DNA of 64,000 nucleotides from a virus (lineage: Duplodnaviria > Caudoviricetes). The notes beneath the pieces are model-generated. The model saw nothing but the letters and a program-made list of their open reading frames with translations, searched no databases and was not told the origin of the DNA. The position numbers and the translations under genes were made by a program. This document shows, piece by piece, positions 4,245-40,966 of this stretch. The stretch covers positions 1 through 64,000 of the IMG/VR virus record IMGVR_UViG_3300037455_000467; one strand, given 5' to 3'. Positions within the stretch are counted from its first letter, which is position 1. Every line of letters begins with the position of its first letter.

Positions 4245-4309
4245 TATAGGAGAAATAAACTCTTATTCAGAGTCTTATCTCCCCTATAATAGTCATAGTT
4301 TTTTCTGCG
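4245..4309 (-). promoter_or_regulatory. CGCA-type promoter motif (4283-4309) overlapping a long hairpin (4245-4288) followed by a T-tract
   Basis: Sense CGCAGAAAAAACTATGACTATTATAGGGGAGATAAGACTCT-gaata-AGAGTTTATTTCTCCTATA-ATTTTTTG. Confidence 0.6.
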
Positions 4310-4315
4310 CGGACA

Positions 4316-5572
4316 TTATGTCCGCAGGAAAGCTTTTTCATTAAATATCTTTTTGTTTTTTAATGCATGTAATATAGCTTTGTCTATTGATGAACCAGAA
4401 ACTAATCTATAATAATACAAATCAGAATATGGTGTATTAATTCTATCTATTCTTCCACTAGCTTGTTCCATAATCTTATATGAATAATTTAGAGAATAGA
4501 ATATAACCGTATCAGTCTCTGTACAATTCCAACCTTCAGCACCTGCTGTATACTGAACTAAATATACCCACTTATCAGTCTTTGGTATCATTTCATGCTT
4601 ATGGCCATTCCATTCAGCAATGGAATAATCAGACACTTCAAAATATCTTTGTGGAATACTTCTAAGCAATTCTAATTCACTATCTAAATTGTAAAAGATT
4701 ATTGCCTTATTATGTTTCTTCAGTAATTCAATAATTTTATCAATTCTAGAAAAATCATTATTAACAATCTTTCTTAAAATATAGCACAACTGTCCAGCAT
4801 CTCGAATTGGTTCATCTTCATATGGATTCCATCTATTCTTAAATGCTACGTCATAAATATCTTTGTCATAACCAACTTTAACATCTAACACATGTCTTTT
4901 AGTATGTCTAGAATCATTCATTTTAACTAAAATTTGTTTTCTAAATCTTATCAATCTATCGGTATCGACATACTTAATAATTTTAGGATACTTAGCAAAA
5001 CGATCAAATATAGCATGTTGTCTTAAAAATGCTGTTCTATTCTTATAGAATCCATTAGCTATAAATACTGGAATATAATCTGACCATGTATCACCTGGGG
5101 TTGCACTCAATAAAATCCATTGATTATTCTTAACAATTTTTAAATATGACCTAACCCAAGAACCAGCTCCAACAACTCTTTGTTCATCGAATATAAAGAA
5201 TGCATTAGTAACTGTTTCATACTTTCGAATATTATTCCATGAATCTACTGTAACCAAAATATGACCTAAACTAGAATTCCTATCAGTCGCTAAACAAAAC
5301 TTAGCAAACTCATCATGCCATTCTAATGTATCTCTTTTACGAGCTGTTGTAATAATATACAAATCTCTTGGGCGTAATGGAGTAGAATTCGTTGTATAGT
5401 TTCCTTGACAAACTTTATCCACAAAATATACGAGTGCGGTAATAGATTTGCCAGATCCAACTCCACCAACAAGTATTGAGCCATTCTTTAATTGTTCAAC
5501 AGCTTTCTTCTGTTCAGGACGTAACGTTATCATAGTCTTTCTAGCCACTAAGAGCCATTCTAAGAGCCTCAA
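4316..5572 (-). CDS. Superfamily 2 (SNF2/DEAD-like) helicase
   Basis: Walker A GGVGSGKS, motif II IFDEQR, motif III LSATP, GAEGWN, motif VI QASGRIDR. Confidence 0.9.
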   Translation of the reverse strand: MRLLEWLLVARKTMITLRPEQKKAVEQLKNGSILVGGVGSGKSITALVYFVDKVCQGNYTTNSTPLRPRDLYIITTARKRDTLEWHDEFAKFCLATDRNSSLGHILVTVDSWNNIRKYETVTNAFFIFDEQRVVGAGSWVRSYLKIVKNNQWILLSATPGDTWSDYIPVFIANGFYKNRTAFLRQHAIFDRFAKYPKIIKYVDTDRLIRFRKQILVKMNDSRHTKRHVLDVKVGYDKDIYDVAFKNRWNPYEDEPIRDAGQLCYILRKIVNNDFSRIDKIIELLKKHNKAIIFYNLDSELELLRSIPQRYFEVSDYSIAEWNGHKHEMIPKTDKWVYLVQYTAGAEGWNCTETDTVIFYSLNYSYKIMEQASGRIDRINTPYSDLYYYRLVSGSSIDKAILHALKNKKIFNEKAFLRT

Positions 5573-5637
5573 ATATCTTTTACGATTAATGTATCGCTAC
5601 TAAATACAGAGACCCTTAGAATGGCTTAAAATATCTT

Positions 5638-6126
5638 TTAGATCATCGATTCACTATCATCCGAATCAGGAATGTCATAATACTTCGACACGAACGGATC
5701 CTCAACTACAGTAGCATAAATAGCCTGAAGATATGCATTTACGCCACTATCACCATTAGGACGACGCCAACGATTCGGACGAATAACAATATCAACGTTC
5801 GAATACTCATAATCATCCAGCACACCAATAGTCTGCTCAGTAAGCGAACGCTTCGCATGCGAATTAATCAGCATTGCAATTGGGGCACGATACTTATACC
5901 CGATATTAACCTTAATATAACTAACCGGCTCAAATCCTTCACGAGGCTTAGTAGTCTTAACATTCATACCAAGCTCTAGAGCCTGTCGCAATGCCTCGCC
6001 CTCAAGAATAACATTAAAATTGCGCTCACCCTCATTATTATATGGACCAGCTGCTCCCTTAAAATTGGTATAGAAAATAAACTGAGCGTTAGGGATGTTG
6101 ATGGCGGGGAAATTATCACGAGACAT
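5638..6126 (-). CDS. Probable single-stranded DNA-binding protein
   Basis: Between polymerase and helicase; acidic C-terminal tail (DIPDSDDSESMI); beta-rich aromatic pattern. Confidence 0.5.
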   Translation of the reverse strand: MSRDNFPAINIPNAQFIFYTNFKGAAGPYNNEGERNFNVILEGEALRQALELGMNVKTTKPREGFEPVSYIKVNIGYKYRAPIAMLINSHAKRSLTEQTIGVLDDYEYSNVDIVIRPNRWRRPNGDSGVNAYLQAIYATVVEDPFVSKYYDIPDSDDSESMI

Positions 6127-6129
6127 AAA

Positions 6130-9100
6130 TTAACTCCTTACATACTTCGTCAAAATATCTGAAATATCAAAACCAAGATCACAAAGATCATAGTTCTTCT
6201 TAAAATGCGGACAATCAAAACATGAATCCATGGTTGAATCACCACAAGGCATTACCCATGGAATATCTTTTTGATCATCTACAAACCAATAATAGTCACC
6301 AAACTTAGAAATAGCTTCAACTGCTTCATCAACTAATGCATCAAAATATCCAGTATCAACATACTTCTCTGTTTCAGTACCTCGAATAAGTTCAGATTCT
6401 AAGAACCTGTAACCCTTAGTGCCACTTGCATATGATAGACGGCCATCTGATTCTATTCGTTTTAACTCACCTCCTCCATGTCCTGATAATATCGGACAGA
6501 AGGATCCAGTACGACCGACAAATATCGGATTAGATTCGCCTTCAGGCAATCGTTCATTCATATCCAAATAAAATGCCGATTTTGTGGAAAGAATTATGCA
6601 CATATCGTCGAATAGTATCTTATCATGTGAGAATATCTTTTTAAACACATATGGTTCCTGGAATTGTTTACCAGTAGCAGTCCACTTTCCTGGGGCTTGA
6701 GGAGACTTGACTGTTTGCTTGCCAACAAATACAGCATTATTAACCAAACAAATTTTCTCCCATTCAGCTTCAACTTCGAAAATATAACCGTATTTCTTTC
6801 CAAAGTCACAAACAAACTGTTCAATCTCAGGAGTTGGATCAGCAATCTTAATAGAATCTGTCTTAATATGAACTACTTTGAATCCACGTTTCTCAACTTC
6901 ATCCTGAAGAGTGCGCATAAATAATGCTCCACGTAATGCAACAATATTATTCTTATTGCGCTTATCTCTAAATGGATTATCAAATGAGGCTGATGTCAAA
7001 CCATACACAGAATTAATAGCAGTCTTTAATGCATTCGACAAGTCTTTCGCTTCATCTTTGTTCTTCAAATATGGCTTAAGCTTACCATCAAACAATTTAC
7101 CAACAGCATCATAATCGCCATGCTTAATATGAAGACGAATGTTAACTAGATCTGCAAATCTATCTGTATAGTCACCCAAATATCTTAGCTCGATAATAGA
7201 AGTTGGATGCATGGATGCGACATCATAAGTCACACAATGTTTATACATCCCGGGATTTGCATAAACCCATCCACCGCGACCAACATCATCGCCACGATAC
7301 ATGTTTTTACCATTACGATACTTATAGCCAGGAAAATCTTCTGATAAATCATGCCAATTAAGTTTAGGCTTTTTCTCTTTTCCAAATATAATTCTAGTAG
7401 TTAATGCATTTGTGGAATCATTAACTGTCATTCCAGCAATATCTGCTAGAATCTCACGTGCTCTGAAATCGCCATGAAGATGATTGAATACAGCTTCTGT
7501 AGATATAACGTCATTATCGCAATACTCAGCAACCTGTTCCCAATCTTTCTCATCTACTGGTTGATCCCAAGGAAGATTCAACTCCTGGTGATGAAGACCA
7601 AGCTCAATCTCCCATCGCTTAAGACTCTTCTTATGAGCAGCAGATGCAAAATCATATACATCAGTATATGACAAATTATAAGCTTCGCCAAATGTACAGT
7701 TAGCATTTCTATCATTACTAATTATCTTTTGACTTAGTGTGTAAAGTTCTTCATTATTGTATCCAATATATCGAGCATACAAAATATGATTATCATATCG
7801 ACGATTATTGAATCCAACAAGCTTGTATCCAAATATCTTTCCTACTTCTTCTGGAGTTGGGTTAATCATCCTTATACAAGTCGGATCTCCCTCAAACTTC
7901 CAATTTACAAGAAATAGATTAGGAAATACCTCAACATCAAAGAAAACGAGTCGTGGATCAATATACTTTCCATTAACATTCATGCTAGGTTCTTCTGACT
8001 TATATGGCATCTCGCTAGCAAGTTTCATACAATATTCGCTCTGATTAGTACTATTCATAGCAAATATCATTATTGCTTGCTTCATATCAGAAATATCATA
8101 AGATAGTCCAGCATCTTTAGCTTCATGAAGAATATGATTAATAAAATCTACACTTGGTTTTGTAGCTCCGAATTCTTTTGAAAGACTTCGCTTAATTAAT
8201 TCACGAAGAGCTCTCTCGCTTTTTACAGCGGCATGGTTCAGCACCTTTCGCTCCTCTCTTAATGGCAAACCACTATTTATCATTCTTATCGGAATTTTAT
8301 TACATGCTGTCAATTGTCTTCTTAAACTGCTATTACCATTAAAGACTTTTATTTCGATATCGTCAGAATATAACGGTCTCAAAGTATTTACATCACCATC
8401 ATAAATATAATGAAGATGTAATCCTTTACCGCTTTTACTATACTCTGCATATGTAGATGGCCACTCTGATGCAGCTTTCAAATTTAACTCTGCAGACTTT
8501 TCTCCTGTTTCTGGATCTTTAATATCAAAATCAATTACAATATGATTAGATGGCATTTTAACATAATGAAGAAAATGAGTATTGAGCATCTTCAACGTTC
8601 CATTAATATTCTCCCACTTTCTAAATGGAACACCATCTTCATTCGCATACTGTGCAGGACAATCTTTTAGAGTTTCATCCAATATAGAATTTAATCCAGC
8701 ATCATTAGTCAATTGTAACCATGGTGGTACTTCAAATTCATTAGAATCTCCAGTAATCATTTGAATATCTTTCTTGCCATCAATCTTCCAATTTAAGAAA
8801 CCTCTATATAAATTTGTAACATGATTTCCATCTACTGTAGTGCTAGAGATAAATTCTTCAAAATATTCTCTCAACTCTTGTTTAAACTTATGTTTTGGCA
8901 TCAAATATCTTAAACCAGATTCTTCTGTATACTCTTTAAACATTTGCCATGCACGTTTAAGAGTTACACCATTCTCTTCTTTAAATGTAAAATATGATTC
9001 CTCAACAAAGTTAAAGAAAATATCGGTTCGTTCCATCATGTCAGTAGATCGATATGCATCATAATAATGTATTCCGAGTTTCTTATAAACATCTAAACAA

Positions 9101-10068: not shown

Positions 10069-10102
10069 CGACTCACCCCCTTTCAATATAAGCATGAGAA
10101 AA

Positions 10103-10320
10103 AACACCAAAAATTTTTGGTGTTAAAAAGTAAAATGGTGTAAAAATGGTGTAAAAGAAACTGCAGGTAGATGTGTATTTTTTTCTTAAAAATACCAAAA
10201 AACCATTTTTTTTCTAAATTTTAAAAAGTAATTTATAGTTTATATATATATATAAAAGATAACAAGAATTTTTTGGTTTTTCGCATTATTTTTGGACTTT
10301 TGTTACATTTTTACCTCTAT
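10103..10320. other. AT-rich intergenic region, candidate replication origin
   Basis: Perfect 22-bp palindrome AACACCAAAAATTTTTGGTGTT (10103-10124), tandem TAAAA(A)TGGTG, a (TA)n run, directly upstream of the primase-polymerase. Confidence 0.4.
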
Positions 10321-10421
10321 AAGGTTCATTAATGCGGGTCTAATGTCCGCACCATCAAGGCCATACAAATAACCATTTGCGTAAAATAACTCACATATTC
10401 CTTCAAATTCGACATCAATCT

Positions 10422-11051
10422 TTAAAAATATCTTTGTAAATAGGCATGCATCTGATACCAAATCTCCATTCGCTGCCATCCAGGTACTCCAAACCACCCA
10501 CCATATATGAGAGCAGTTCCATCATCAAGGACTTCTCTATGATTCATTATGTCAGTACAAATATCACACACAAGACCAAATGAACCAAAAACTCCTTCAA
10601 CCCAGTTATCATCGTCAAGCGTATCGAAACCCATAATCCTCATGATAGTCCAGAACCACTTACTGACACTATTGTAAATATCAGTATACATCATGATATC
10701 ATACATACGCATCGACAATGCAACTAACATCTCAAGTACGCGGCATTCACCAAATATCTCATGAACATCCGGAGTAATGAAATCACCATCACCAGCTTTT
10801 TGAGACAAAATATAATTATACTTATTTCGAAGCTCCAAGCCTTCTTCGGCACGATCAATATCATTACCAAGATTGGCTCGGAAAGGAATCGTCCACAAAG
10901 CATCAATCAGTTCATGATAACTTCTTCTAGAAATATCACTAACTGTTTCATCAATTGTGAACGACTCCAACCATTCGACATAAGACTCGTTCTTAAAATA
11001 TGGCGTATTCACGCTATATGACTTATCAACTATCGACACTCCTACCACCAT
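10422..11051 (-). CDS. Hypothetical phage protein
   Basis: 209-aa ORF in the co-directional operon. Confidence 0.7.
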   Translation of the reverse strand: MVVGVSIVDKSYSVNTPYFKNESYVEWLESFTIDETVSDISRRSYHELIDALWTIPFRANLGNDIDRAEEGLELRNKYNYILSQKAGDGDFITPDVHEIFGECRVLEMLVALSMRMYDIMMYTDIYNSVSKWFWTIMRIMGFDTLDDDNWVEGVFGSFGLVCDICTDIMNHREVLDDGTALIYGGWFGVPGWQRMEIWYQMHAYLQRYF

Positions 11052-12015: not shown

Positions 12016-12052
12016 ATATCCCGCTACCCACAGCCTTTAAGCCATCACGTTC

Positions 12053-14478: not shown

Positions 14479-14505
14479 CCTATATAGAAGTAGTTATTTT
14501 TGCGA
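14479..14505 (-). promoter_or_regulatory. CGCA-type phage promoter motif
   Basis: Sense TCGCAAAAATAACTACTTCTATATAGG. Confidence 0.65.
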
Positions 14506-15498: not shown

Positions 15499-15525
15499 TC
15501 GTTTAAGGAGTGGAAATTTTTGCGA
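15499..15525 (-). promoter_or_regulatory. CGCA-type phage promoter motif (divergent -10)
   Basis: Sense TCGCAAAAATTTCCACTCCTTAAACGA. Confidence 0.5.
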
Positions 15526-16407: not shown

Positions 16408-16434
16408 CCTATTTACTGGTAGGATTTTTTGCGA
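16408..16434 (-). promoter_or_regulatory. CGCA-type phage promoter motif
   Basis: Sense TCGCAAAAAATCCTACCAGTAAATAGG followed by hairpin AGCCAG-agagta-CTGGCT. Confidence 0.6.
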
Positions 16435-24185: not shown

Positions 24186-24266
<81 letters not shown>

Positions 24267-28629: not shown

Positions 28630-28702
28630 TGGGCCCTATGGGAATCGAACCCATGACCTTGAGATTAAAAGTCTCCTGCTCTACCAACTGAGCTAAGGGC
28701 CC
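28630..28702 (-). tRNA. tRNA-Lys(TTT)
   Basis: GGGCCCT/AGGGCCC acceptor, TAGCTCAGTTGGTAGAGC D arm, GGAGA-CT-TTT-AA-TCTC anticodon arm, GGGTTCGATTCCC T arm; 73 nt. Confidence 0.95.
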
Positions 28703-29355: not shown

Positions 29356-29583
29356 TTACATCATCTTAAGAAGATGATTGACTGTGCGCATATTCCCTTC
29401 ATATACGCCTTGAGAAATCATTTGTATTGGCACGGCTACACTAATGACAACTAAGGCTCCACAGAATAATGCAGTAGTAATGATAGGATGATCTTCTATT
29501 ACTTTAGAAACTTTGTCTTTCATAATGCAATCCTTTCCGAAAAAATATAAGAGGAGCCAAATCGTCAGTTCCTCTTCCGTCAT
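29356..29583 (-). CDS. Small membrane protein
   Basis: 75 aa, TM segment. Confidence 0.55.
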   Translation of the reverse strand: MTEEELTIWLLLYFFGKDCIMKDKVSKVIEDHPIITTALFCGALVVISVAVPIQMISQGVYEGNMRTVNHLLKMM

Positions 29584-29597
29584 TATAGTAATGGTAA

Positions 29598-29891
29598 TTA
29601 TTGCGAATTTCTAACCTCTACCCATTTAAAATATTCTTCATTAGTTAGTCCTTCGCTCTCTATTGACCGAGCCCTAGCATTAGCATATGCTTGCGTAATA
29701 GTAGCCTCAGCATAAATATCAGCTTCAAGTTTTTTAGTATAAGTATTAAGTACGTTATGCCCCCATGTAAAGTATAGAAGCACAAATATCAATCCGATTA
29801 CAATAATTCGAACGAGTCGAACTATCTGCTTATTATCATCTGCATCTATTTTAAGCTTAGCAAGTTCAGCAGAATCAATATCAACTTTCAT
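29598..29891 (-). CDS. Membrane protein with an SPFH-tail-like C-terminus
   Basis: TM helix, then AEATITQAYANARARSIESEGLTNEEYFKW. Confidence 0.5.
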   Translation of the reverse strand: MKVDIDSAELAKLKIDADDNKQIVRLVRIIVIGLIFVLLYFTWGHNVLNTYTKKLEADIYAEATITQAYANARARSIESEGLTNEEYFKWVEVRNSQ

Positions 29892-31057: not shown

Positions 31058-31090
31058 ATGAGGATTAGTAAACTTTCTACTAACCCTCAT
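31058..31090 (-). terminator. Intrinsic terminator
   Basis: ATGAGGGTTAGTAG-aaagt-TTACTAATCCTCAT followed by ATTTTT. Confidence 0.7.
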
Positions 31091-31313: not shown

Positions 31314-31341
31314 CCTATATAAGTACTGGTAAATTGTGCGA
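31314..31341 (-). promoter_or_regulatory. CGCA-type phage promoter motif
   Basis: Sense TCGCACAATTTACCAGTACTTATATAGG. Confidence 0.65.
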
Positions 31342-32705: not shown

Positions 32706-32790
32706 TCATAGAATCCAGTCTCCATTCAGCTCATAGTGAAGTAAATATAAGTCCCAACAAATCGAGGCACGAATACTTGTGAGACATGAC

Positions 32791-33093: not shown

Positions 33094-33125
33094 AATTTTT
33101 CCAATCTTTTGTAAAAATATAAAAG

Positions 33126-33423
33126 TAGGGTAGAGTGTAAAATTTGTTTTATAACTTTATGCTTTCTTATACATTATACCATCGATTGTAATATAATCAT
33201 TCTGGTTGTCATCTTTTAGTTTTTCTTGAATGCTGTCAAGAATACTTGCTGGATTATCTTGGTCATCAGAATCCACTTCTTGACCACGACGATAACCAGC
33301 CTCGTATGCAGCAGACAACATAAAATATAAACCAATTCCTGCCCCAACAATACTACAAATATTATAAAATTTTCTTAACATAATTTCTTAAATCCTTTCT
33401 AAATTTTTATACACTCTACCCTA
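33126..33423. repeat. 14-bp perfect inverted repeat flanking gene 33157-33381
   Basis: TAGGGTAGAGTGTA at 33126-33139 and its reverse complement at 33410-33423. Confidence 0.85.
33157..33381 (-). CDS. Small membrane protein (cassette gene)
   Basis: 74 aa, N-terminal TM. Confidence 0.65.
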   Translation of the reverse strand: MLRKFYNICSIVGAGIGLYFMLSAAYEAGYRRGQEVDSDDQDNPASILDSIQEKLKDDNQNDYITIDGIMYKKA

Positions 33424-33447
33424 TAAAGTAGATAGTAATTTTTGCGA
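33420..33447 (-). promoter_or_regulatory. CGCA-type phage promoter motif
   Basis: Sense TCGCAAAAATTACTATCTACTTTATAGG. Confidence 0.65.
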
Positions 33448-33456
33448 CTACTCTTA

Positions 33457-33639: not shown

Positions 33640-33642
33640 CTC

Positions 33643-33891: not shown

Positions 33892-33957
33892 TGGTAATGC
33901 ATCCTATTTTCAATGGGTAATTAGTCATATAGATTTAAAAGTACCCTTTAAATGGCT

Positions 33958-34362
33958 TTACAGCGCCTCATTTACCTGCGATTTTGATAGGGTTCTATTT
34001 TGGTCAATTTGATAAAGTTTTTGGGCTAAAAATATAACTTCAGCAGTCTTTTTACCTACTCCTGGTATATTAAATACTTCTTTACTTGATAAATACGCCC
34101 ATTGCTTAACATCTTTGTATCCTTCAAGATGAAGACTGTTTGTAGCTCGAACACCAACATCGGATTTTAGAACTTTACATGCTCTCCAAATATAATAGTC
34201 GACATCGTCTGGAACTTTCTTTTGCTTCTGTATCATTCTTATGTTAATTTCTCGAACGCGTGCTGGGGTAATTCCATAAAATCTAGCAACTTCATTATAT
34301 GATTTACCACTTTTGATAGCTATGCGAATGTCTCGATTTCTATTGATTTTTTCTTCAGCCAT
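33958..34362 (-). CDS. Sigma region 4-like HTH fused to an RNA polymerase alpha-CTD-like domain
   Basis: RNRDIRIAIKSGKSYNEVARFYGITPARVREI plus VRATNSLHLEGYKDVKQW...VFNIPGVGKKTAEVI. Confidence 0.65.
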   Translation of the reverse strand: MAEEKINRNRDIRIAIKSGKSYNEVARFYGITPARVREINIRMIQKQKKVPDDVDYYIWRACKVLKSDVGVRATNSLHLEGYKDVKQWAYLSSKEVFNIPGVGKKTAEVIFLAQKLYQIDQNRTLSKSQVNEAL

Positions 34363-34377
34363 AATAAAATATAACTC

Positions 34378-34665: not shown

Positions 34666-34681
34666 AAATATTCCTTTCTAC

Positions 34682-34951
34682 TTAATCATTTGGTCTATTA
34701 GCGAGAACTTGATTTCTAAAATTTATATAAGCTAATCGATCTTTTTCAACATCTTGAATTTCATTAATCAAGTCTTCACTCTTAATATACTCTGAACCAC
34801 TTGATTGACGATACCATTGCTGAATTCTGTAATATAATCTTTCTTTATGAAGATTATACGTTCGTTCTAGTTGATTCAGCATTCGAAAAATATAATCTCG
34901 ATCTTCTATACCATTCTCTTCTAGTCGTCTATTTATGTAATGTTCTAGCAT
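34682..34951 (-). CDS. Hypothetical protein
   Basis: 89-aa ORF. Confidence 0.55.
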   Translation of the reverse strand: MLEHYINRRLEENGIEDRDYIFRMLNQLERTYNLHKERLYYRIQQWYRQSSGSEYIKSEDLINEIQDVEKDRLAYINFRNQVLANRPND

Positions 34952-35088
34952 GATGAAACTCCCGAGAAAAATATAAATAGTTATTTTATTTACCTACCAT
35001 CCCTACCGTACATGAGTGCTTTGGCTCCACTCCATCTGAAGTACGCCCTCCTCTCCTAAGCCTCGTCGTACTCTACAAACACTCTACT

Positions 35089-35115
35089 CTATTATACAAG
35101 TGGGAATTTTTGCGA
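35089..35115 (-). promoter_or_regulatory. CGCA-type phage promoter motif
   Basis: Sense TCGCAAAAATTCCCACTTGTATAATAG. Confidence 0.65.
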
Positions 35116-35116
35116 A

Positions 35117-35153
35117 AAAATATAAATCCCCGGAAATTCAACGATCTCCGGGG
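35117..35153 (-). terminator. Intrinsic terminator with a TTTATATTTTT tail
   Basis: CCCCGGA/TCCGGGG stem at 35128-35153. Confidence 0.75.
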
Positions 35154-35164
35154 AAATATAAATA

Positions 35165-36061
35165 CTATGAAGCGGCCTGTAAATATCTAATAGATTGTCT
35201 ATTCTTACTATTTGTACTAGATTTACGATTAGTAGAAGATTTTGGAGTTGATGTAGTCTTACGCTGAGTAGTTGCTGAGGTATTAGATTTCTTAGTTGTA
35301 GTTGAAGAATTTTGTTTAGGTTGTTCATCAGTATTAAATTGTTCATAAACAGCTTGAGCAGCTTTACGAGCCTCACGTGCTTTACGTACTTCATTCATAG
35401 TCTCTACAGTACGTCCACCATTACGCTCTTCTTCTGCCATCTTCTTTTTAAGGTCATCGATACGTTTCTTAGCAGCATCAAGATCTTGCTTAGCTACGTC
35501 ACGTGCTTTAGTTTTTCCATACTTATTAATAAGATTATCATAAACTTTCTTACCAGTAGACTCGTAATGTTGTTTAGATTTTACAGAACCAGCATCAGCT
35601 GCTTGTTTAGCTTGACGTTGTCTTTGATATTGTTCTTCGCGCTGCCTATCGCCACGAGATTCATATTCTTGTTTTGCTTTACTTCCAGCATCAGTTTCTC
35701 TTTTAAAATTATTAGCATAGTCTTTAACACGATCTTTATATTCTTTAGCAGACTCTGCTTGTTTCTTCCATGAATCAACATAGCTATCCATCATTTTATT
35801 TTGAGCATATAAAGCTGCTCCGCCTAAAGCTACACTTCCTGCTACTAATCCAGCAGTTTTAAGAGCTGCTTTTTGTGACTTAGTAAGACCTCTACGCTTC
35901 TTACTAGTCTGTCGATCATGGACTTTACCTTTAGCAGTTCGAGTACCATCAGGATTCTGATATCTACGAACTCCCCATTTCATACCTTTTATGCCGTGAT
36001 GAGAAATATAATCTACATCAAGTTGATCAACAAATGTTGGAGTATAATACACTACATACAC
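35165..36061 (-). CDS. HHG-leader protein with a basic coiled-coil body
   Basis: YISHHGIKGMKWGVRRYQNPDG. Confidence 0.8.
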   Translation of the reverse strand: MYVVYYTPTFVDQLDVDYISHHGIKGMKWGVRRYQNPDGTRTAKGKVHDRQTSKKRRGLTKSQKAALKTAGLVAGSVALGGAALYAQNKMMDSYVDSWKKQAESAKEYKDRVKDYANNFKRETDAGSKAKQEYESRGDRQREEQYQRQRQAKQAADAGSVKSKQHYESTGKKVYDNLINKYGKTKARDVAKQDLDAAKKRIDDLKKKMAEEERNGGRTVETMNEVRKAREARKAAQAVYEQFNTDEQPKQNSSTTTKKSNTSATTQRKTTSTPKSSTNRKSSTNSKNRQSIRYLQAAS

Positions 36062-36064
36062 CTC

Positions 36065-36550
36065 CTAAATATCAATAGTTCCAAGAGATTCTTTACTATA
36101 GGCTTTACGACCACCAGCCCATACGCCATTCTTAACTTTATTCATATTATAGTCAGGCGATGCTAATGCTGAATATACTCCAAGTTCTCCACGCTTAGCT
36201 ACAAATCTAACTACTCGTCCAGATGGTGCTGGAATATCCTCAACTCGTTCATTCATTAGTCGAGCCATCTCACGATTATATTGATTGATAGCATTTTTGC
36301 TCATGAGTCCACGACTAGTATAATATCCACCTTGACGCTGAAGTTGTTTATCATACTGCTTCATGTCTTTAGCAACAAGTTTTTCAGTTTTCTTTTGAAT
36401 CTTATTAGCATTTCTTTTTGCCCATTTAGCATCTTGCTTTTGCAAATGCTTAACACCAGCAGGAGTTAAAGATCCGTCTTCATTTTGATATCGTCTAACG
36501 CCCCACCGTTGTCCTTTAATTCCGTGATGCATTAAATATAAGTCATTCAT
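36065..36550 (-). CDS. HHG-leader protein
   Basis: MNDLYLMHHGIKGQRWGVRRYQNEDGSLT. Confidence 0.8.
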   Translation of the reverse strand: MNDLYLMHHGIKGQRWGVRRYQNEDGSLTPAGVKHLQKQDAKWAKRNANKIQKKTEKLVAKDMKQYDKQLQRQGGYYTSRGLMSKNAINQYNREMARLMNERVEDIPAPSGRVVRFVAKRGELGVYSALASPDYNMNKVKNGVWAGGRKAYSKESLGTIDI

Positions 36551-36552
36551 AG

Positions 36553-37450
36553 CTATAGCATACCAACCATTCTTCTTCCAGCAGTATATGCTTTACTTTT
36601 ATATACTTCACCCATAGTAGTACGATATGATCCTTCAGATATAATAGAATCCATATTAAATACTATAACAGGACTTTGCGCTTGAACTGAATTATATAAT
36701 GCATCATTCGTGTCTAATACCGCATCGTATCCATTTTTTTTTTAATTCATTAAAAAACTTAGCTCTTTGCGTAGCAACATCTTTTGCATATTTTTTATTA
36801 CCTCCAGCATCAGATGGAATGGCATGATTAAATATTGGATAAATATCATTTAAATCTTTATCTGTCGGAATATAATTTGGATCTTTTAAACGATCCATTG
36901 CTGCTCTTCCACGAGCATATCCTGGACTAATTTTATGAACGCCATCTTCAAAACGAGCTCTAAGCCTATTTTCATCAGTTACAAAATTATAAAAGTCTCT
37001 ATCATTTTCATATAATTTTCTAAAAGCTTTTGCTCCACTATCTTCTGATGCAACTTTAATTTCTTTATTCGCTTTATTTTGAATAGAATATTTATAAAAA
37101 TTACCAGTTCCTATATTATTTCCATTATCATCATAAATTGGCATAGGTGCTGGTTTATCAAAAAATTCTTTGTAATGATCAATATCTGCTTTTGTATGCG
37201 ATGCAAAAAACATGTCAGTATTTGATGTACGATTTTTATCATAAGATAATGTTTTAAAAACAGTACCTTCTTGTAATACATTATCATAATGTTTTTTATT
37301 ATATCTACTATATTTTTTCTTGCGTTCTGCTTTTATAGCTTTTTGTTCTGTTTTACTATATGATCCACCTTTTAATGGATATGGTGGTCCATTACGTGTC
37401 CCCCATTTTTGACCAAGAATTCCATGATGCATTAAATATAAGTCATTCAT
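36553..37450 (-). CDS. HHG-leader protein frameshifted at an A10 tract (36734-36743); possible ART-like cargo
   Basis: MNDLYLMHHGILGQKWGTRNGPPYPL from ATG 37450 (AGGTGAG RBS). As sequenced it stops at 36704; with A9 it continues KKNGYDAVLDTND...IVFN to a stop at 36553. Confidence 0.7.
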
Positions 37451-37454
37451 ACAC

Positions 37455-37859
37455 TCACCTATTTTCTTCAATGCCATAAACATTATTAATAGGATCGTAT
37501 GTTAAATGTTTATCTTTTAAATTCATTTTAGACATTAATTTTTTAACACGTTCAATATCTTTTTGATTTGTTTTAGCCCACTTTATAGCAGCATCTTCTG
37601 TTTGTTTCATTTGTTTTTTCATGTATGATTTTTTATATAATTGTGGATATCGTTTAGCTTGAGCTTCCATTCTACCACGAGCAGATGCATTATCTAGCAT
37701 TTGTGCATTAGAATACGCTTCTCGTCTAGCAGCTTTATTAAGTTTTTTTAAATATCTTTTTTCACCAGCAGGAGTAAGAGTCCCATCATAGTTTTCATAG
37801 CGACGTACACCCCAATGCATGCCTTTAATCCCATGATGCATTAAATATAAATCATTCAT
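37455..37859 (-). CDS. HHG-leader protein
   Basis: MNDLYLMHHGIKGMHWGVRRYENYDGTLT. Confidence 0.8.
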   Translation of the reverse strand: MNDLYLMHHGIKGMHWGVRRYENYDGTLTPAGEKRYLKKLNKAARREAYSNAQMLDNASARGRMEAQAKRYPQLYKKSYMKKQMKQTEDAAIKWAKTNQKDIERVKKLMSKMNLKDKHLTYDPINNVYGIEENR

Positions 37860-37886
37860 TGCACCTCAATTCAAACTTCGAAAAAA

Positions 37887-37913
37887 CATAGAGCTAGTAA
37901 ATTTAGCTCTATG
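37887..37913 (-). terminator. Intrinsic terminator
   Basis: CATAGAGCTA/TAGCTCTATG stem followed by TTTTTT. Confidence 0.75.
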
Positions 37914-37922
37914 CTATAGGAT

Positions 37923-38240
37923 TTAATCCAACTTAATGTATGGATACTCACGAGTTATAAAATCTTTAACAATGACTCGCAGGCAGTCACAATCAGTTTT
38001 ATCCTCAAGAATTTGATCTAAATCTTTCTTAAGAAACAGCTTTTTAGTTTCAAGCTCCATTATTTTATTCCGTCGACAAGTGATCTCATCTTTAATATCA
38101 CTAATTTGCTGATCGTAATTATCAATCATAGCTTGAACTTCATCGGCTTTCTTTGAATAATAGTCAAATTCCTTACTGAATTCACCATAATATTCAACTG
38201 CAACATCACGTGTTGATTTTACTCCACTCATAAATATCAC
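37923..38240 (-). CDS. Coiled-coil protein (cassette gene)
   Basis: Own promoter, AGGAGG RBS and terminator. Confidence 0.65.
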   Translation of the reverse strand: MIFMSGVKSTRDVAVEYYGEFSKEFDYYSKKADEVQAMIDNYDQQISDIKDEITCRRNKIMELETKKLFLKKDLDQILEDKTDCDCLRVIVKDFITREYPYIKLD

Positions 38241-38261
38241 CTCCTTTTAACGGATGTCAAT

Positions 38262-38289
38262 CCTATAAAAGAGGCAGTATTTATTGCGA
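38262..38289 (-). promoter_or_regulatory. CGCA-type phage promoter motif
   Basis: Sense TCGCAATAAATACTGCCTCTTTTATAGG. Confidence 0.7.
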
Positions 38290-38538
38290 AAAATATCAAC
38301 TATTTAGTTTTATCTTGAAGATCAGAAAGCTTATGGAACAGCATTTTTCTTTTGAATACTAAATCACAAATTGCCTTGTCGAGATTCGAAATATCTTCTT
38401 TAACGTTTCGAATCTCATCAAATATAATAGATTTGTCATCAGACTCATTATAAGCCATGATTACCACTGCTCCTTAAAATTGTAAAAAGAAAGTAATGGT
38501 AATTTCTACCACAACTCTCTTTTTTGGTTAAATCATTG

Positions 38539-38751
38539 TTACATCCATAACGGATATCTCATAATTATATTGTATTCTTCTCTAGAAAGCAAGCTCAATA
38601 GATAAGATGCTTGCTTATCATTGATCACACTCCAACATCCCATAAAATATCCTTCGCTGTAAGTCTTTGCAGCTTTGATATCAATTTTGTTGTTGAATGA
38701 TCGCCAATTAGCAATCATTCTTTGAACTGCTTTCTTTTCTCTTCTTTTCAT
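38539..38751 (-). CDS. Hypothetical protein (cassette gene)
   Basis: 70 aa, AGGAGG RBS. Confidence 0.65.
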   Translation of the reverse strand: MKRREKKAVQRMIANWRSFNNKIDIKAAKTYSEGYFMGCWSVINDKQASYLLSLLSREEYNIIMRYPLWM

Positions 38752-38790
38752 ACTTCCTCCTAAATATCCGTGAGATCCACATTGATCTCT

Positions 38791-38817
38791 CCTATAAAGA
38801 GGTAGTATTTATTGCGA
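38791..38817 (-). promoter_or_regulatory. CGCA-type phage promoter motif
   Basis: Sense TCGCAATAAATACTACCTCTTTATAGG, nearly identical to 38262-38289. Confidence 0.7.
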
Positions 38818-38823
38818 AAAATA

Positions 38824-39096
38824 TCACACAACATTTCTAGAAACAATTTTCCAATCAAGATAACGATAACAATTATCGTATACTTCTTTATAACAAATAG
38901 ACACTTGCATTTCATCTGGATTTATTATTACATCTCTAATATGCATTAGGCCTTTATTATGTATGTAAAAAAAGCCATCTAAATCTTTTTCTATATGAAG
39001 CCAAGCATCTTCTATTTTAAAATATAAATTGGGATAACAAACTGAATCCATGTCAAATCTTAATACAGATCGTTTTTTAATTTCGAAAACTCTCAT
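38824..39096 (-). CDS. Hypothetical protein, tandem paralog A
   Basis: Shares LYFKIEDAW and IINP..MQV with 39102-39374. Confidence 0.65.
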   Translation of the reverse strand: MRVFEIKKRSVLRFDMDSVCYPNLYFKIEDAWLHIEKDLDGFFYIHNKGLMHIRDVIINPDEMQVSICYKEVYDNCYRYLDWKIVSRNVV

Positions 39097-39101
39097 AACT
39101 A

Positions 39102-39374
39102 TTATCTAACCTCTCTATGAATAATATCAAAACAGGTATATTGATAATAATCATAATAAGTTTCTTTATATATAATACATACTTGCATTTTAGTTGGATT
39201 AATTATAATATTATGAATATGAATGGCGCCCATATCATGACTTCGAAATTCCATCTCTAAATGCTTACCAATTTCAGTCCAAGCATCTTCTATTTTAAAA
39301 TATAAATACAAATCACGGTCACTAACCTCGTATGATTGCATTACTTTACGTCTCTTAATTTCCCAAACATCCAT
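39102..39374 (-). CDS. Hypothetical protein, tandem paralog B
   Basis: Shares LYFKIEDAW; 29-bp identical DNA at 39001-39029 and 39279-39307. Confidence 0.65.
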   Translation of the reverse strand: MDVWEIKRRKVMQSYEVSDRDLYLYFKIEDAWTEIGKHLEMEFRSHDMGAIHIHNIIINPTKMQVCIIYKETYYDYYQYTCFDIIHREVR

Positions 39375-39403
39375 GATTTCTCCAGAATTATTTAATCATA
39401 ATT

Positions 39404-39967
39404 TTATTGATTCTTTCTAGAATATCCATATACCGACCATTCATCATTGCTTTTATCAGCTTCATATTCAAAACCAACTTTTTCAGCAATATGAGTAGAG
39501 CCAGTATTCTCTTTATAAGCTCCCCAGCCAAGATAAGTAGCACCATATTTGTCTGCATTTTTATCAAACCAGTTGACGCCTTGCTGAGCTAATTTTAATG
39601 CTCGTCCCTGACCTCTATAATTAGGATCAGTACCGACAGCTACAGTTAAATGACCTTCACGAGTTGTTGTCATAATATCAAGAAAAGCTACTGGAATATC
39701 ACCATCTTTTTCTAAAAATCGTTTAACAACATACTCGCCTTCTTGAAGTGTTAAGAATTCGTTAGATCCTTCATCATCACCAAGAAGATATTTATCTTTT
39801 TTGGACATAGAATTATAGATACGATCTACATCATTTTTAGTCTTAGCAGCACGCTGCATTCGTCTATGATAAATACCTTCTTCAGTCAAAGATCCATCAG
39901 CATTCTGATAACGTCTAACACCCCATTTCATGCCTTTTACGCCATGATGAGCTAAATATATATTCAT
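39404..39967 (-). CDS. HHG-leader protein with a C-terminal GNAT acetyltransferase domain
   Basis: YLAHHGVKGMKWGVRR; VGTDPNYRGQGRALKL; ENTGSTHIAEKVGF. Confidence 0.8.
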   Translation of the reverse strand: MNIYLAHHGVKGMKWGVRRYQNADGSLTEEGIYHRRMQRAAKTKNDVDRIYNSMSKKDKYLLGDDEGSNEFLTLQEGEYVVKRFLEKDGDIPVAFLDIMTTTREGHLTVAVGTDPNYRGQGRALKLAQQGVNWFDKNADKYGATYLGWGAYKENTGSTHIAEKVGFEYEADKSNDEWSVYGYSRKNQ

Positions 39968-40039
39968 GAGTAAAAGTCCTTACTAAAAATATAAAGCTAG
40001 CCGTAAATTTCTTCACAGCTAGCCTTATAGAAACTAACT

Positions 40040-40336
40040 TTAATCCTCTTGAGAGAATTTTTCTTTATACTTCATTACAGCAGTTCGCTCCATGAACATC
40101 TTAGCACCTTCATGGGTGAGCCTATCTATTTCAGATTTAACGACACAACGATCTCTTTTTAAAGTATCAAGCTCGTTCTCTAAGGTCTCAATAGCATCCT
40201 CAAGCTGATCGAACTTAATTTTGAGTTCGTGTTTCTCATCATCTTTAGCATTGACTCGTTCATGAATATCATCTAAGATCTCTTCACAAAGTCCAACTAT
40301 GTGATAATTTATACTCATAACTAACCTCCTCTCCAC
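40040..40336 (-). CDS. Coiled-coil protein (cassette gene)
   Basis: Own promoter and terminator; resembles 37923-38240. Confidence 0.65.
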   Translation of the reverse strand: MERRLVMSINYHIVGLCEEILDDIHERVNAKDDEKHELKIKFDQLEDAIETLENELDTLKRDRCVVKSEIDRLTHEGAKMFMERTAVMKYKEKFSQED

Positions 40337-40355
40337 AATAGTCTTTCTGTCAGTT

Positions 40356-40383
40356 CCTATTATAGAAGAAGTTAGTTTTGCGA
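40356..40383 (-). promoter_or_regulatory. CGCA-type phage promoter motif
   Basis: Sense TCGCAAAACTAACTTCTTCTATAATAGG. Confidence 0.7.
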
Positions 40384-40384
40384 G

Positions 40385-40423
40385 AAAAAAGAAAAGGTGG
40401 TTAATGATTCAACTAACCACCTT
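40385..40423 (-). terminator. Intrinsic terminator directly upstream of the next promoter
   Basis: AAGGTGGTTA...TAACCACCTT stem followed by TTCTTTTTT. Confidence 0.75.
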
Positions 40424-40441
40424 AAATCTTAGAATATAATT

Positions 40442-40921
40442 TTAGATTGACGGTCGAACCAACTGGCTCATTCCATTAACAAGTCTTTGAGGAACTGTAC
40501 TATTCCTTTCAAGACCAATCCAGAAAGCTAGAATAATACCATATGTTACAATGCCACCCATTTTTAACATGGTTTGCGAATATCCATCTTGTCTCTTGTT
40601 TTGCGCTTCTATTATCTGAAGCTTTATTTTGTCTTTTTCAGAACTTCCTTTCTCAAGGGAATTCAGAATATCACTTAAAACTTTCAGATTATTTGCTGCC
40701 ATTTGATACTCAGGTGTATCAGCATGCAATGTTGACATTGTACTGATGGCATTAACCATCTCTTCCTTTATTAGTTCTTTGATTTTTTCATAATCTAATT
40801 CACTCTCATCTTCGTTAATAGATACAGCAACTTTGGTTACCGATCCATTATTGTATCCCAAAAGATTTAATAATGTTGGTGAATTTACCATACCTTTTCC
40901 TTTCGTCCTAGGAAGAATCAT
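40442..40921 (-). CDS. Membrane-anchored hypothetical protein (cassette gene)
   Basis: 159 aa, C-terminal TM. Confidence 0.65.
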   Translation of the reverse strand: MILPRTKGKGMVNSPTLLNLLGYNNGSVTKVAVSINEDESELDYEKIKELIKEEMVNAISTMSTLHADTPEYQMAANNLKVLSDILNSLEKGSSEKDKIKLQIIEAQNKRQDGYSQTMLKMGGIVTYGIILAFWIGLERNSTVPQRLVNGMSQLVRPSI

Positions 40922-40939
40922 TCTCTTCGATTCTTCTCT

Positions 40940-40966
40940 CCTTTATAGAAAAAGTATTTTTTGCGG
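40940..40966 (-). promoter_or_regulatory. CGCA-type phage promoter motif
   Basis: Sense CCGCAAAAAATACTTTTTCTATAAAGG. Confidence 0.65.

Follow-up and report, generated by a model that had tools for sequence, protein, structure and literature searches.

A repeated three-box element as a candidate promoter class for a phage-encoded single-chain two-barrel RNA polymerase

The locus and its repeated element

The DNA analysed here, a stretch of 64,000 nucleotides (the window) from IMG/VR record IMGVR_UViG_3300037455_000467, belongs to a Caudoviricetes genome of 80,424 bp in which the minus strand is the coding strand of all 127 called genes. The structural arm occupies 41–80 kb, and past it lie short cassettes of small non-structural genes, replication genes and, as the second-to-last gene of its arm, a gene for a 935-residue single-chain two-barrel RNA polymerase (Table 1). 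Megablast of the window against GenBank phages gave no match. Twelve copies of a 27-base element punctuate the non-structural arm, covering fractional positions 0.49–0.95 of the genome in transcription order. The element comprises three boxes—TCGCA, TAC(T/A) (also TAC(T/C)) and a TATA-like box followed by GG—and its consensus in this phage is TCGCAAaAAttaCta-N3/4-.tttAtAGga. An earlier, sequence-only reading had listed eleven copies of a CGCA/TATA motif; their sequences were confirmed at the coordinates given, on the minus (coding) strand, and both the copies and the motif are real, but the total is twelve and the conserved middle TAC box had been overlooked.

A two-block PWM scan of both strands of the full 80,424-bp genome recovered the 12 sites at 21–34.5 bits, on the minus strand only, with best non-site scores of 8.4 bits (minus) and 11.2 bits (plus). 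The newly recognized site at 29580–29606 scored 21.0 bits from outside the PWM training set. When each training site was left out in turn, ten sites retained 16–33 bits and the site at 4283–4310 fell to 6.4 bits, a value that is partly an artefact of a downstream box set one base off. Markov-1 random genomes (n = 100) contained on average 0.25 matches above 15 bits, with a maximum of 22.1 bits. Two members are weak: 15499–15525 has a poor downstream box (TTAAACGA), and 4283–4310 starts with GCGCAG instead of TCGCAA, yet is kept at the orthologous position in relatives. The scan found no copy across the structural arm (41–80 kb), in agreement with the original description, which had none at 43–64 kb.

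Table 1 Candidate promoter sites and associated features of the window
Feature	Position	Strand	Description
Site 1	40940..40966	-	CCGCAAAAAATACTTT-ttc-TATAAAGG; 6 nt past stop of DUF7211 gene 41902->40973; 48 nt to gene 40891->40442
Site 2	40356..40383	-	TCGCAAAACTAACTTC-ttct-ATAATAGG; adjoins hairpin terminator 40394-40423; 37 nt to gene 40318->40040
Site 3	38791..38817	-	TCGCAATAAATACTAC-ctc-TTTATAGG; 39 nt to gene 38751->38539
Site 4	38262..38289	-	TCGCAATAAATACTGC-ctct-TTTATAGG; 30 nt to gene 38231->37923
Site 5	35088..35115	-	TCGCAAAAATTCCCAC-ttgt-ATAATAGA; adjoins hairpin terminator 35127-35154; 136-nt leader, then gene 34951->34682
Site 6	33420..33447	-	TCGCAAAAATTACTAT-ctac-TTTATAGG; 38 nt to gene 33381->33157
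Site 7	31314..31341	-	TCGCACAATTTACCAG-tact-TATATAGG; after thyX (32030->31368); 29 nt to 62-aa gene 31284->31096
Site 8 (new)	29580..29606	-	TCGCAATAATTACCAT-tac-TATAATGA; overlaps final 9 nt of gene 29891->29598; 56 nt to gene 29523->29356
Site 9	16408..16434	-	TCGCAAAAAATCCTAC-cag-TAAATAGG; within 3' end of gene 16789->16409; 43 nt to gene 16364->16173
Site 10 (weak downstream box)	15499..15525	-	TCGCAAAAATTTCCAC-tcc-TTAAACGA; 74 nt to DUF6353 gene 15424->14510
Site 11	14479..14505	-	TCGCAAAAATAACTAC-ttc-TATATAGG; 4 nt past DUF6353 gene; 45 nt to gene 14433->14116
Site 12	4283..4310	-	GCGCAGAAAAAACTAT-gact-ATTATAGG; 5 nt past helicase gene; heads VRR-Nuc / exonuclease / RNA polymerase / 105-aa operon
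Intrinsic-terminator-like hairpin, 11 bp	35127..35154	-	tail TTTATATTTT; abuts site 5
Intrinsic-terminator-like hairpin, 12 bp	40394..40423	-	T-rich tail; abuts site 2
935-aa single-chain two-barrel RNA polymerase (PHROG 4291), proposed reader	555..3362	-	GADFDGD, three HTH motifs
105-aa protein, function unassigned (PHROG 4303)	223..540	-	directly after polymerase gene in ten of ten genomes

Placement of the sites relative to genes

The sites occupy a narrow range of positions between genes. At ten of the 12 the 5' edge lies 4–58 nt past the preceding stop codon, and at the other two (29606 and 16434) it falls within the final 9–26 nt of the preceding gene. From the end of the box, the next start codon is reached after 29–56 nt at nine sites; of the remaining three, two lie 74 and 136 nt away from it, and the third is 89 nt from the VRR-Nuc gene, which starts with GTG. 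These measurements, made at all 12 sites, bear out the claim that the copies are co-oriented, intergenic or at gene ends, and close to the next start. That some directly follow terminators also holds, in two cases, with predicted hairpins adjoining sites 2 and 5. The 62-residue gene behind site 7 is followed by a terminator (31058–31090). The long leader behind site 5 was considered as a small RNA and the candidate discarded: the leader has no Rfam match and its fold is not unusual (folding z-score of 0.02).

Conservation of the element with the polymerase gene

The three-box architecture recurs in nine other genomes that encode the polymerase, with the consensus shifted in some lineages, and the genome-specific consensus sequences of the ten genomes align position by position. 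The relatives infect rumen and gut Firmicutes, Lactococcus, Arthrobacter, Microbacterium, Streptomyces and Gordonia, spanning two phyla. The strand bias is nearly absolute, with 152 sites on coding strands versus 1 opposite in the ten genomes, and an independent sample of 27 loci from bacterial assemblies gives 54 sites on the polymerase strand versus 1 on the other. All sites of the relatives lie past the structural module, with the exception of extra copies at the left end of one genome (G002). The exact 17-base family pattern occurs in at least 104 viral contigs, against roughly 8 expected by chance on a rough estimate.

The suggested check of motif and polymerase co-occurrence among relatives came out in favour of a link. 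Among 79 motif-bearing viral records tested, the 22 with a completeness of 90% or more all encode the polymerase (E ≤ 1e-141), the motif-bearing records that lack it are all 69% complete or less, and the element is present in ten of the ten polymerase-bearing genomes studied; these co-occurrence and conservation figures are confounded by the common descent of one phage lineage. Site 12 stands about 950 nt (0.9–1.0 kb) before the start of the polymerase gene, a position that is conserved more widely than any other in the family: orthologues of this site extend to viral contigs whose polymerases are only about 50% identical, and most of the 27 bacterial-assembly loci have a copy there. In actinophages about 25 nt separate the element from the start codon. 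The genes found between sites vary widely from one relative to another.

A separate strand-specific motif, TTCAAAATGG, is common in the rumen clade and rare in actinophages. It was weighed as a further promoter class, one serving the structural arm, and it overlaps ribosome-binding sites and start codons.

Drift of the downstream box away from the sigma-A consensus

In seven of the ten genomes the downstream box is TATAAT or near it, and it is a perfect TATAAT in the actinophages and in P092, where the TAnnnT hexamer stands in register at 47 of 49 sites. In this phage and in its relative G001 the box has become T.TATAGG, in G005 it is TCTTnATGGAG, and at the polymerase-operon site of many Clostridia-phage lineages the sequence is CTTTTATGA. 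The in-register hexamer is correspondingly retained at 4/12 sites here, 11/23 in G001 and 0/18 in G005. The upstream box varies as well, to CCGCA (G002), CGCG (Mudcat and G005) or TTTTA (P092).

The element had been described as distinct from sigma-70 promoters, and this stands: besides the low TAnnnT count, there is neither a TTGACA 16–18 nt from the box nor a TGn extension at any of the 12 sites, the −35 position is T-rich or within the TCGCA box, and TCGCA lies 13–15 nt from the box. A sigma-70 scan of the DNA picked up none of the 12 sites and found no strong host-type promoter; its sigma-70-like matches number 34 on the coding strand versus 37 on the other, none both strong and well placed. 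Within lineages, then, the box drifts in concert, in ways that sigma-A, to judge from the aligned sites, could not read. Such concerted, lineage-specific drift of the consensus indicates a phage-encoded reader and makes host sigma-A unlikely in that role, since sigma-A would not permit it.

The polymerase and its neighbours

The 935-residue protein matches PHROG 4291 over its full length (E = 0). Its GADFDGD motif (residues 538–547), which corresponds to the Mg-binding DxDGD loop of a beta-prime-like barrel, is invariant from S538 to D545 in 27 homologues, and three HTH motifs are present, two N-terminal and one C-terminal that resembles sigma region 4. An AF2 model (mean pLDDT of 77.5) has QDE-1 as its top Foldseek match (probability 1.0, E 4.5e-8), followed, also at probability 1.0, by P74-26 gp62 and P23-45 gp64 (8f5m, 8f72; E 1e-6 to 5e-6), RDR2 and P23-45 gp96, with global TM-scores of these fold matches low at about 0.3. 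Phmmer found no match of the polymerase among PDB sequences. Of the non-structural proteins conserved in the ten genomes, it is the sole one with recognizable DNA-binding domains. The 105-residue protein encoded directly behind it could be its cofactor.

A sigma4/alpha-CTD protein (33958–34362) had been put forward as another possible reader. We reject it: its Pfam alpha-CTD match reaches 18.6 bits against a cutoff of 23.8 bits, and of the nine other genomes with the motif, eight lack it and only the closest relative has it.

Two further features of the polymerase were examined. Its residues 1–37 form a disordered peptide with many invariant residues, and six window proteins carry Pfam DUF7211; hhalign of the polymerase N terminus with the DUF7211 leader was not significant (E 0.098, probability 0.6%), and packaging of the polymerase is thus not supported by this profile comparison. 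The HTH motifs also change alongside the boxes in places. In P092 the CGC core and the HTH2 arginine are missing together, as are TACA and the HTH1 arginine in the G000 clade; among 80 loci each change traces to a single evolutionary event, with locus L017 as an exception, and the apparent covariation is only a lead.

Proposed mechanism and alternative explanations

We propose, as a reading with a somewhat better than even chance of being right, that the 12 sites are candidate promoters read by the phage's own two-barrel polymerase, acting alone or with a small conserved partner, and that they most likely represent a promoter class common to the whole 1706 / FP_oengus / actinophage supercluster. 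The case is that the signal travels with the polymerase gene across phyla and has left the bacterial consensus. The original proposal of a cognate promoter for the phage RNA polymerase is upheld insofar as the element is non-sigma70, lineage-wide, linked to that gene and drifting in consensus; its sigma4/alpha-CTD variant is not. What we infer beyond these observations is the initiating enzyme, the pairing of domains with boxes, the start site and the timing. The fused HTH modules would dock on the two duplex boxes upstream, TCGCA and TAC(A/T), which are separated by about one helical turn; melting would occur at the A/T-rich TATA-like box; and the first nucleotide of the RNA would fall among the conserved purines that immediately follow this box on its 3' side (GGAGAG here, GAGAC in actinophages), so that leaders of about 25–55 nt would include the ribosome-binding site. 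Transcription from the sites would thereby cover short cassettes of small non-structural genes together with replication genes and the polymerase operon. The site ahead of the polymerase's own operon would set up positive feedback; with the gene itself placed behind such a site, the first copies of the enzyme must be made or delivered in some other way. A more ambitious version, which we hold to be doubtful, takes the 935-residue protein for a self-sufficient single-chain machine that uses its three HTH modules as a sigma substitute, needs no host or phage partner and enters the cell with the DNA by way of its invariant N-terminal peptide, so that the sites would be true early promoters.

The need for a phage-encoded reader would also be satisfied if the host core or holoenzyme transcribed from these sites under a phage specificity factor, the TATA-like box serving as the −10 element and the TCGCA/TACA boxes (about −31 to −18) binding a phage protein, be it the HTH-bearing polymerase-like protein as an activator or the conserved 105-residue protein. 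The prevalence of TATAAT or near-TATAAT boxes (seven of ten genomes) and the MotA-box-like placement of TCGCA relative to the −10 fit this explanation, as do the hairpin-plus-T terminators that flank the cassettes, which are typical for a host polymerase and a counterpoint to transcription by the phage enzyme; the latter would be dispensable at the start of infection only if the factor were injected or made early. We nevertheless regard host polymerase under redirection as unlikely. The A(−11)/T(−7) pair needed by every sigma-A is found at none of the 18 G005 sites and only four of the 12 here, no small sigma-like, MotA-like or AsiA-like protein is conserved across the ten genomes, and an intact DFDGD polymerase would be left without a promoter in the actinophages, in which no other repeated motif class is evident.

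That the sites are ordinary early promoters of host sigma-A, with a −10 only or a weak −35 and conserved flanks that are incidental or operators, is the published reading for the Gordonia phages Vardy and Conley (PMC9671010, PMC10868162); the perfect TATAAT of actinophages and P092 agrees with it, and so does the location of the sites before small, presumably early genes right after the structural module. We judge it very unlikely. Besides lacking a −35 element and a TGn extension and being missed by the sigma-70 scan, the sites conserve nine box positions and about ten upstream ones far beyond what sigma-A needs, across hosts in two phyla, and concerted loss of TAnnnT is seen here, in G005 and, for many Clostridia phages, at the site of the polymerase operon. 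We also judge it very unlikely that the element is no promoter at all and serves instead as a protein-binding or recombination signal, either a 'boundary sequence' for gene shuffling, as the 32-bp repeat of Arthrobacter cluster AU has been read amid mosaic gene content (10.1101/2020.01.10.891226), or a stoperator-like block or pause imposed by an HTH protein. The very different inter-site gene content of relatives is what such a signal would lead one to expect, but the spacing to the ribosome-binding site and start codon is tight (29–56 nt here, about 25 nt in actinophages), an easily melted A/T-rich box precedes a conserved purine run, the element directly follows terminators or stop codons, and the copy heading the VRR-Nuc/exonuclease/polymerase operon is conserved, that operon itself not being mosaic.

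Promoter recognition by YonO-type single-chain two-barrel RNA polymerases has been an open question since 2017, and the family described here provides a defined 27-bp candidate. It offers natural specificity variants in the upstream box (TCGCA, CCGCA, CGCG and TTTTA) and the downstream box (TATAAT, TATAGG and TCTTnATGG), and among its members are phages of Lactococcus, Gordonia, Microbacterium, Arthrobacter and Streptomyces that can be cultivated. Should the enzyme work alone, it would make a compact orthogonal polymerase–promoter pair spanning two phyla; if it is self-sufficient in the full sense outlined above, it would serve as a living model of a two-barrel polymerase from before sigma factors, and the pair as a portable orthogonal system already at work in both Actinobacteria and Firmicutes.

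Comparison with known systems

Promoters of T7-type polymerases (T7, T3, SP6 and K11) are many, near-identical, contiguous and strand-specific elements of about 23–27 bp, the consensus of which shifts between lineages together with the enzyme. In T7 an A/T-rich melting segment (TATA) stands directly before a purine-rich start, TATAGGGAGA, and here, likewise, a TATA segment is followed by a purine start, TATAGGAGAG. The T7-type enzyme is a right-hand, Pol I-like polymerase that reads its promoter through a specificity loop and an AT-rich recognition loop; the enzyme here has a double-psi beta-barrel, an unrelated fold, and its HTH modules would read the upstream boxes. The middle promoters of T4 resemble the present sites in combining a −10-like box with a phage-specific box near −30 in place of a −35 element. 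T4, however, uses the host polymerase with MotA and AsiA, whereas no such proteins are conserved here and the drifted boxes lack TAnnnT.

Closer in enzyme type is the Thermus phage P23-45, whose two-barrel RNA polymerases use repeated conserved motifs, AT-rich for the virion polymerase gp96 and GC-rich for the non-virion polymerase gp64, to transcribe pre-early and early genes, and in which the co-occurrence of motif and enzyme formed part of the published argument (PMC10770324). Both systems pair a phage two-barrel polymerase with a repeated strand-specific motif before non-structural genes, in both the two co-occur among relatives, and the polymerase here has the gp64 and gp62 structures among its top fold matches. 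The P23-45 promoters were mapped by cappable-seq and ChIP-seq, whereas the sites here are known from sequence alone, and the motifs of the two systems are unrelated in sequence. Fused HTH modules are missing from the Thermus enzymes, one of which forms a fusion with the tape measure protein; the 1927-residue tape measure protein here, unlike that fusion, matches tape-measure PHROG families only.

YonO of the Bacillus prophage SPbeta, the only characterized bacterial-virus homologue with a known role in vivo, transcribes late structural genes, with a single promoter, P_yonO, and one start site for one late structural and lysis operon (PMC5467207). It and the enzyme here are both single-chain two-barrel polymerases of Firmicutes phages, likened by type and not by sequence, and its single late promoter contrasts with the 12 sites here, all of them outside the structural arm. 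Since the promoter sequence of YonO is still undefined, a candidate for a related enzyme is useful.

The nearest counterparts of the element itself are the 50-bp / 43-bp intergenic motif of the Gordonia cluster DJ phages Vardy and Conley, read as sigma-70 −10 elements (PMC9671010, PMC10868162), and the AU repeat, reported in phage Giantsbane (10.1101/2020.01.10.891226). The DJ phage Untouchable has 11 copies of tCGCA...aTTACAC-N3-CTATAATGAGA at its genome centre. The DJ and AU motifs share with the sites here the order of boxes, their spacing, the strand and the position past the structural module, and the layout (T)CGC(A/G), 4–5 nt, TAC(A), 4–5 nt, a 9-nt TATA-type box and purines is found here too; all three are the same family. 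The DJ and AU reports treated the motif within one cluster and without a link to the polymerase gene. The labels 'RNA-dependent RNA polymerase' and 'helix-turn-helix DNA-binding protein' for that gene, and 'sigma70 −10' for the motif, are probably misleading. Unlike the DJ and AU elements, that of this 34% GC phage of rumen-type Firmicutes has a box drifted to T.TATAGG, and because only the sigma-A signature of the box has gone, with all other features intact, this phage is among the most informative members of the family.

A strand-specific element in the non-structural arm

The genome (80,424 bp, GC 34%, of which the window is the first 64 kb) is 92% coding, with all 127 called genes on the minus strand. 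Scanning it in full with a two-block weight matrix (3–4-nt spacer) yielded 12 sites of 21–34.5 bits, every one on the minus strand, against a background that peaks at 8.4 bits on that strand and at 11.2 bits on the plus one. These include 11 of the 11 copies reported by the sequence-only reading, read on the minus strand, and an additional site that was detected though outside the matrix training set. Ten sites keep 16–33 bits in a leave-one-out analysis, and 0.25 matches above 15 bits are expected by chance per Markov-1 random genome. The element reads TCGCAAaAAttaCta, a 3–4-nt gap, T.TATAGG and then purines, with an information content of around 18 + 8.5 bits.

The placement that had been described also stands: the 5′ edge follows the stop codon of the gene before it by 4–58 nt or overlaps the end of that gene, the box end is 29–56 nt short of the next start codon at nine of the 12 sites, and the structural region, said to lack the motif, holds zero sites (41–80 kb, weight-matrix scan). 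Two sites adjoin strong hairpin terminators, an adjacency claimed for several copies.

Coordinates of genome regions, promoter-type sites and other features
Feature	Position	Strand	Description
Packaging, head, tail and lysis genes	80.4 to 43 kb (transcription order)	minus	Includes short TerL-type protein, portal, protease–capsid fusion, 1927-aa tape measure, endolysin
Small genes	43 to 16 kb	minus	About 75 genes
Replication core	15 to 0.2 kb	minus	Two DUF6353 genes, 1312-aa primase-polymerase, SSAP, helicase, VRR-Nuc nuclease, exonuclease, 935-aa polymerase-like protein, last 105-aa gene
Additional site	29580-29606	minus	Outside training set
Operon-heading site	4283-4310	minus	Heads VRR-Nuc, exonuclease, polymerase and 105-aa genes
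Leader of polymerase operon	4200-4283	minus	Short imperfect hairpin AGACTCT / AGAGTTT, then T-rich run; could be an attenuator between promoter and VRR-Nuc gene
Extended −10-like TGTTATAAT	40980-40988	minus	6-14 nt upstream of first promoter element, head of non-structural arm
Reverse transcriptase	58590-59678	minus	PHROG 1423, E 4.5e-46; directly upstream of 2502-aa tail protein gene
tRNA genes	28630-28702, 24186-24266	minus	Among small non-structural genes
DUF7211-leader proteins	35165-42991, 79015-79503		Six otherwise unrelated proteins
Seventh DUF7211 leader	36304-36704		Apparently interrupted
Region past last gene	1-222	minus	Repeats of (TATA)GGGTCATATT(T/C)
(A)ATTCAAAATGG(A/G)AG examples	80413-80421, 73677-73685, 71248-71256 (plus-strand positions)	minus	

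Conservation with the polymerase gene

In relatives, the window-derived matrix finds the operon-heading site kept about 950 nt upstream of the polymerase start, and this conservation extends to viral contigs with as little as about 50% polymerase identity and with 51% GC. The three-box layout recurs in whole-genome scans of four complete relatives (82–95 kb and 71 kb) and of five named phages (Lactococcus P092, Arthrobacter Mudcat, Microbacterium Count, Streptomyces LibertyBell and Gordonia Untouchable). After genome-specific refinement, 152 coding-strand sites were counted versus 1 on the opposite strand, nearly all family sites lying downstream of the structural module, and 27 loci from bacterial assemblies contributed a further 54 versus 1. 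In actinophages the element reads tCGCA...aTTACAC-N3-CTATAATGAGA, and a conserved leader and a ribosome-binding site come after it. We hold with high confidence that this is a real, conserved promoter-type element.

The exact 17-base family pattern matched at least 104 viral contigs, and 46 of the 79 records tested, among the matches listed, encode the polymerase. Finding the motif in relatives lacking the enzyme had been named as a refutation of the cognate-promoter inference, a test that the inference survives; the gene is present in all 22 tested records that are at least 90% complete, and the records without it are all at most 69% complete. Conversely, each of the ten polymerase-bearing genomes studied carries the element. 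Since motif and gene are passed on together in one lineage, this co-occurrence does not count as independent evidence of function.

Polymerase homologues of 38–50% identity occur in 250 GenBank phages of Arthrobacter, Gordonia, Streptomyces, Microbacterium, Lactococcus and Faecalibacterium, a supercluster described by Koert et al. (bioRxiv 10.1101/842583). The closest relatives of this phage are rumen and gut contigs, among them one of 90 kb that bins with a rumen Bacillota MAG. Polymerase homologues flanked by promoter elements also lie within a 253-kb and a 286-kb isolate contig of cultured Lachnospiraceae (Lachnospiraceae bacterium 29-84 and Lachnospira hominis NSJ-43); given their position inside such large contigs, some family members may be prophages or stably carried, which would provide cultivable Firmicutes hosts.

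Candidate readers of the element

The match of the 935-aa protein to PHROG 4291 spans the entire protein (E = 0), which carries the polymerase motif GADFDGD (NADFDGD in its cellular beta-prime counterpart) together with the strands RHPH and QVR...YLKGM, all invariant or near-invariant in 27 homologues. Its AlphaFold model (mean pLDDT 77.5) is structurally closest to QDE-1 (E 4.5e-8). It also matches the non-virion RNAPs encoded by Thermus phages P74-26 and P23-45 (E ~1e-6), as well as RDR2 of plants and, from P23-45, the virion RNAP; matches to crAss gp66 and cellular beta-prime subunits are weak. Helix–turn–helix (HTH) motifs are found at the N terminus (two) and the C terminus (one, resembling sigma region 4). 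In P092 the upstream box lacks its CGC core and the HTH2 recognition helix its conserved arginine; in the clade of relative G000, TACA and the HTH1 arginine are both missing. These pairings are leads only, as each is a single evolutionary event and there is one exception.

Three results of the sequence comparison argue against host sigma-A as the reader. As had been claimed, the sites have no −35 element. All nine box positions and around ten upstream positions are conserved far beyond what sigma-A needs, in phages with hosts of two phyla, and the consensus changes in concert within lineages in a manner that sigma-A could not follow: the sigma-A −10 signature TAnnnT is in register at 4 of 12 sites in this phage (T.TATAGG) and 11 of 23 in its relative G001 (T.TATAGG type), at 0 of 18 in G005 (TCTTnATGGAG), and at none apparent by inspection in the polymerase-operon site of many Clostridia phages (CTTTTATGA); the special value of the window is a downstream box that has lost this signature. 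The upstream box varies as well: most genomes have TCGCA, whereas it is CCGCA in G002, TTTTA in P092 and CGCG in both Mudcat and G005. Sigma-70-like matches are not enriched (34 on the coding strand versus 37 on the other), and their scan of this genome gave none both strong and well placed, nor a good host promoter for producing the first polymerase. The extended −10-like sequence TGTTATAAT is a possible host-type entry promoter but is not significant, as TGnTATAAT is found 5 times on one strand, the coding one, and 2 times on the other.

Because the consensus changes with the phage lineage, the reader would have to be phage-encoded, which we consider probable. An alpha-CTD-like protein, proposed earlier as an alternative reader, was rejected, as it scores under the Pfam cutoff and is present in the closest relative only. 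The non-structural proteins shared by all ten genomes are DUF6353, primase-polymerase, SSAP, helicase, VRR-Nuc, exonuclease, polymerase and the 105-aa protein, of which the polymerase alone has recognisable DNA-binding domains. That the sites are the polymerase's own promoters is the best-supported reading, and we lean modestly towards the two-barrel polymerase as the transcribing enzyme. The sequence-only observation is confirmed and extended, its interpretation only partly supported.

Proposed mechanism

We propose that the HTH modules of the polymerase would contact TCGCA and TAC(A/T), two boxes separated by about one helical turn, that the TATA-like box would melt and that RNA would start in the purine run 3′ of it; the copy ahead of the polymerase operon would create positive feedback. 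Gene 1 starts only 17 nt from the contig end, leaving no space for a promoter upstream of the structural arm in the linear map; its transcription must either come from the polymerase side, passing over joined ends, or begin at internal signals. Profile comparison of the polymerase N terminus with the Pfam DUF7211 leader gave no support for a packaged polymerase. That leader, LYLAHHGIKGMKWGVRRYxNxDGTLT, precedes a GNAT acetyltransferase body in one protein, and relatives carry it on other cargo proteins.

Other strand-specific words and repeats

The polar word T(G/T)ATATT(T/C) recurs on the minus strand throughout the genome. Coding-strand occurrences of [GTC]ATATT[TC] number 328, versus 33 on the other strand, in all three codon frames; relative to synonymous-codon shuffles, the polar word is enriched in sense (279 versus 137 ± 6) and depleted in antisense (28 versus 93 ± 6), with a density 3–5 times higher in the non-structural arm. 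No other 7-mer is more strand-asymmetric in G001–G003, Count (ATATTC, 106 versus 3), Untouchable and LibertyBell (47 versus 0), which is not the case in P092 or Mudcat. The word often adjoins the 5′ edge of the promoter element and makes up terminator tails; it could make a polymerase pause or terminate, provide primase sites on the lagging-strand template or orient a translocase.

Past the last gene, (TATA)GGGTCATATT(T/C) joins the promoter downstream box to the polar word, with two copies here, of which one occupies the loop of a 9-bp inverted repeat, about 11 in the last 900 nt of G001 and about 7 in the locus L228 (12790-14123). The 25-nt direct repeat CTCTACAGCTCTTAGCTGCTCAGAG has terminal copies about 105 nt apart. 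The repeats may form an array that acts as a late promoter or origin, or one that binds terminase.

A second minus-strand word, (A)ATTCAAAATGG(A/G)AG, lies 0–45 nt upstream of structural-gene starts (43–64 kb and 64–80 kb). Raw regex matches number 19 versus 3 here, 40 versus 0 in G002 and 38 versus 1 in G003, counts that include overlapping variants, distinct sites being about half; it is rare in actinophages. Its ATG is sometimes the start codon and its GGAG sometimes the ribosome-binding site; the word may function as a late promoter, in RNA processing or as a translation signal. The reverse transcriptase locus, with the 2502-aa tail protein gene directly downstream, includes a preceding 224-nt non-coding stretch, an arrangement that fits a diversity-generating retroelement.

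Comparison with known systems

Papers up to 2026 still treat the polymerase gene as an odd RNA-dependent RNA polymerase. The motif has been published as a recombination boundary in Arthrobacter AU phages (10.1101/2020.01.10.891226) and, for Vardy and Conley of the Gordonia DJ phages, as a motif of 50/43 bp that contains a sigma-70 −10 sequence (PMC9671010, PMC10868162). Both belong to the element family seen here; its pairing with the polymerase is a link for which we found no paper. The promoter of YonO is undefined (PMC5467207). Phage P23-45 offers a mapped precedent, in which two-barrel RNAPs use repeated motifs ahead of early genes (PMC10770324).
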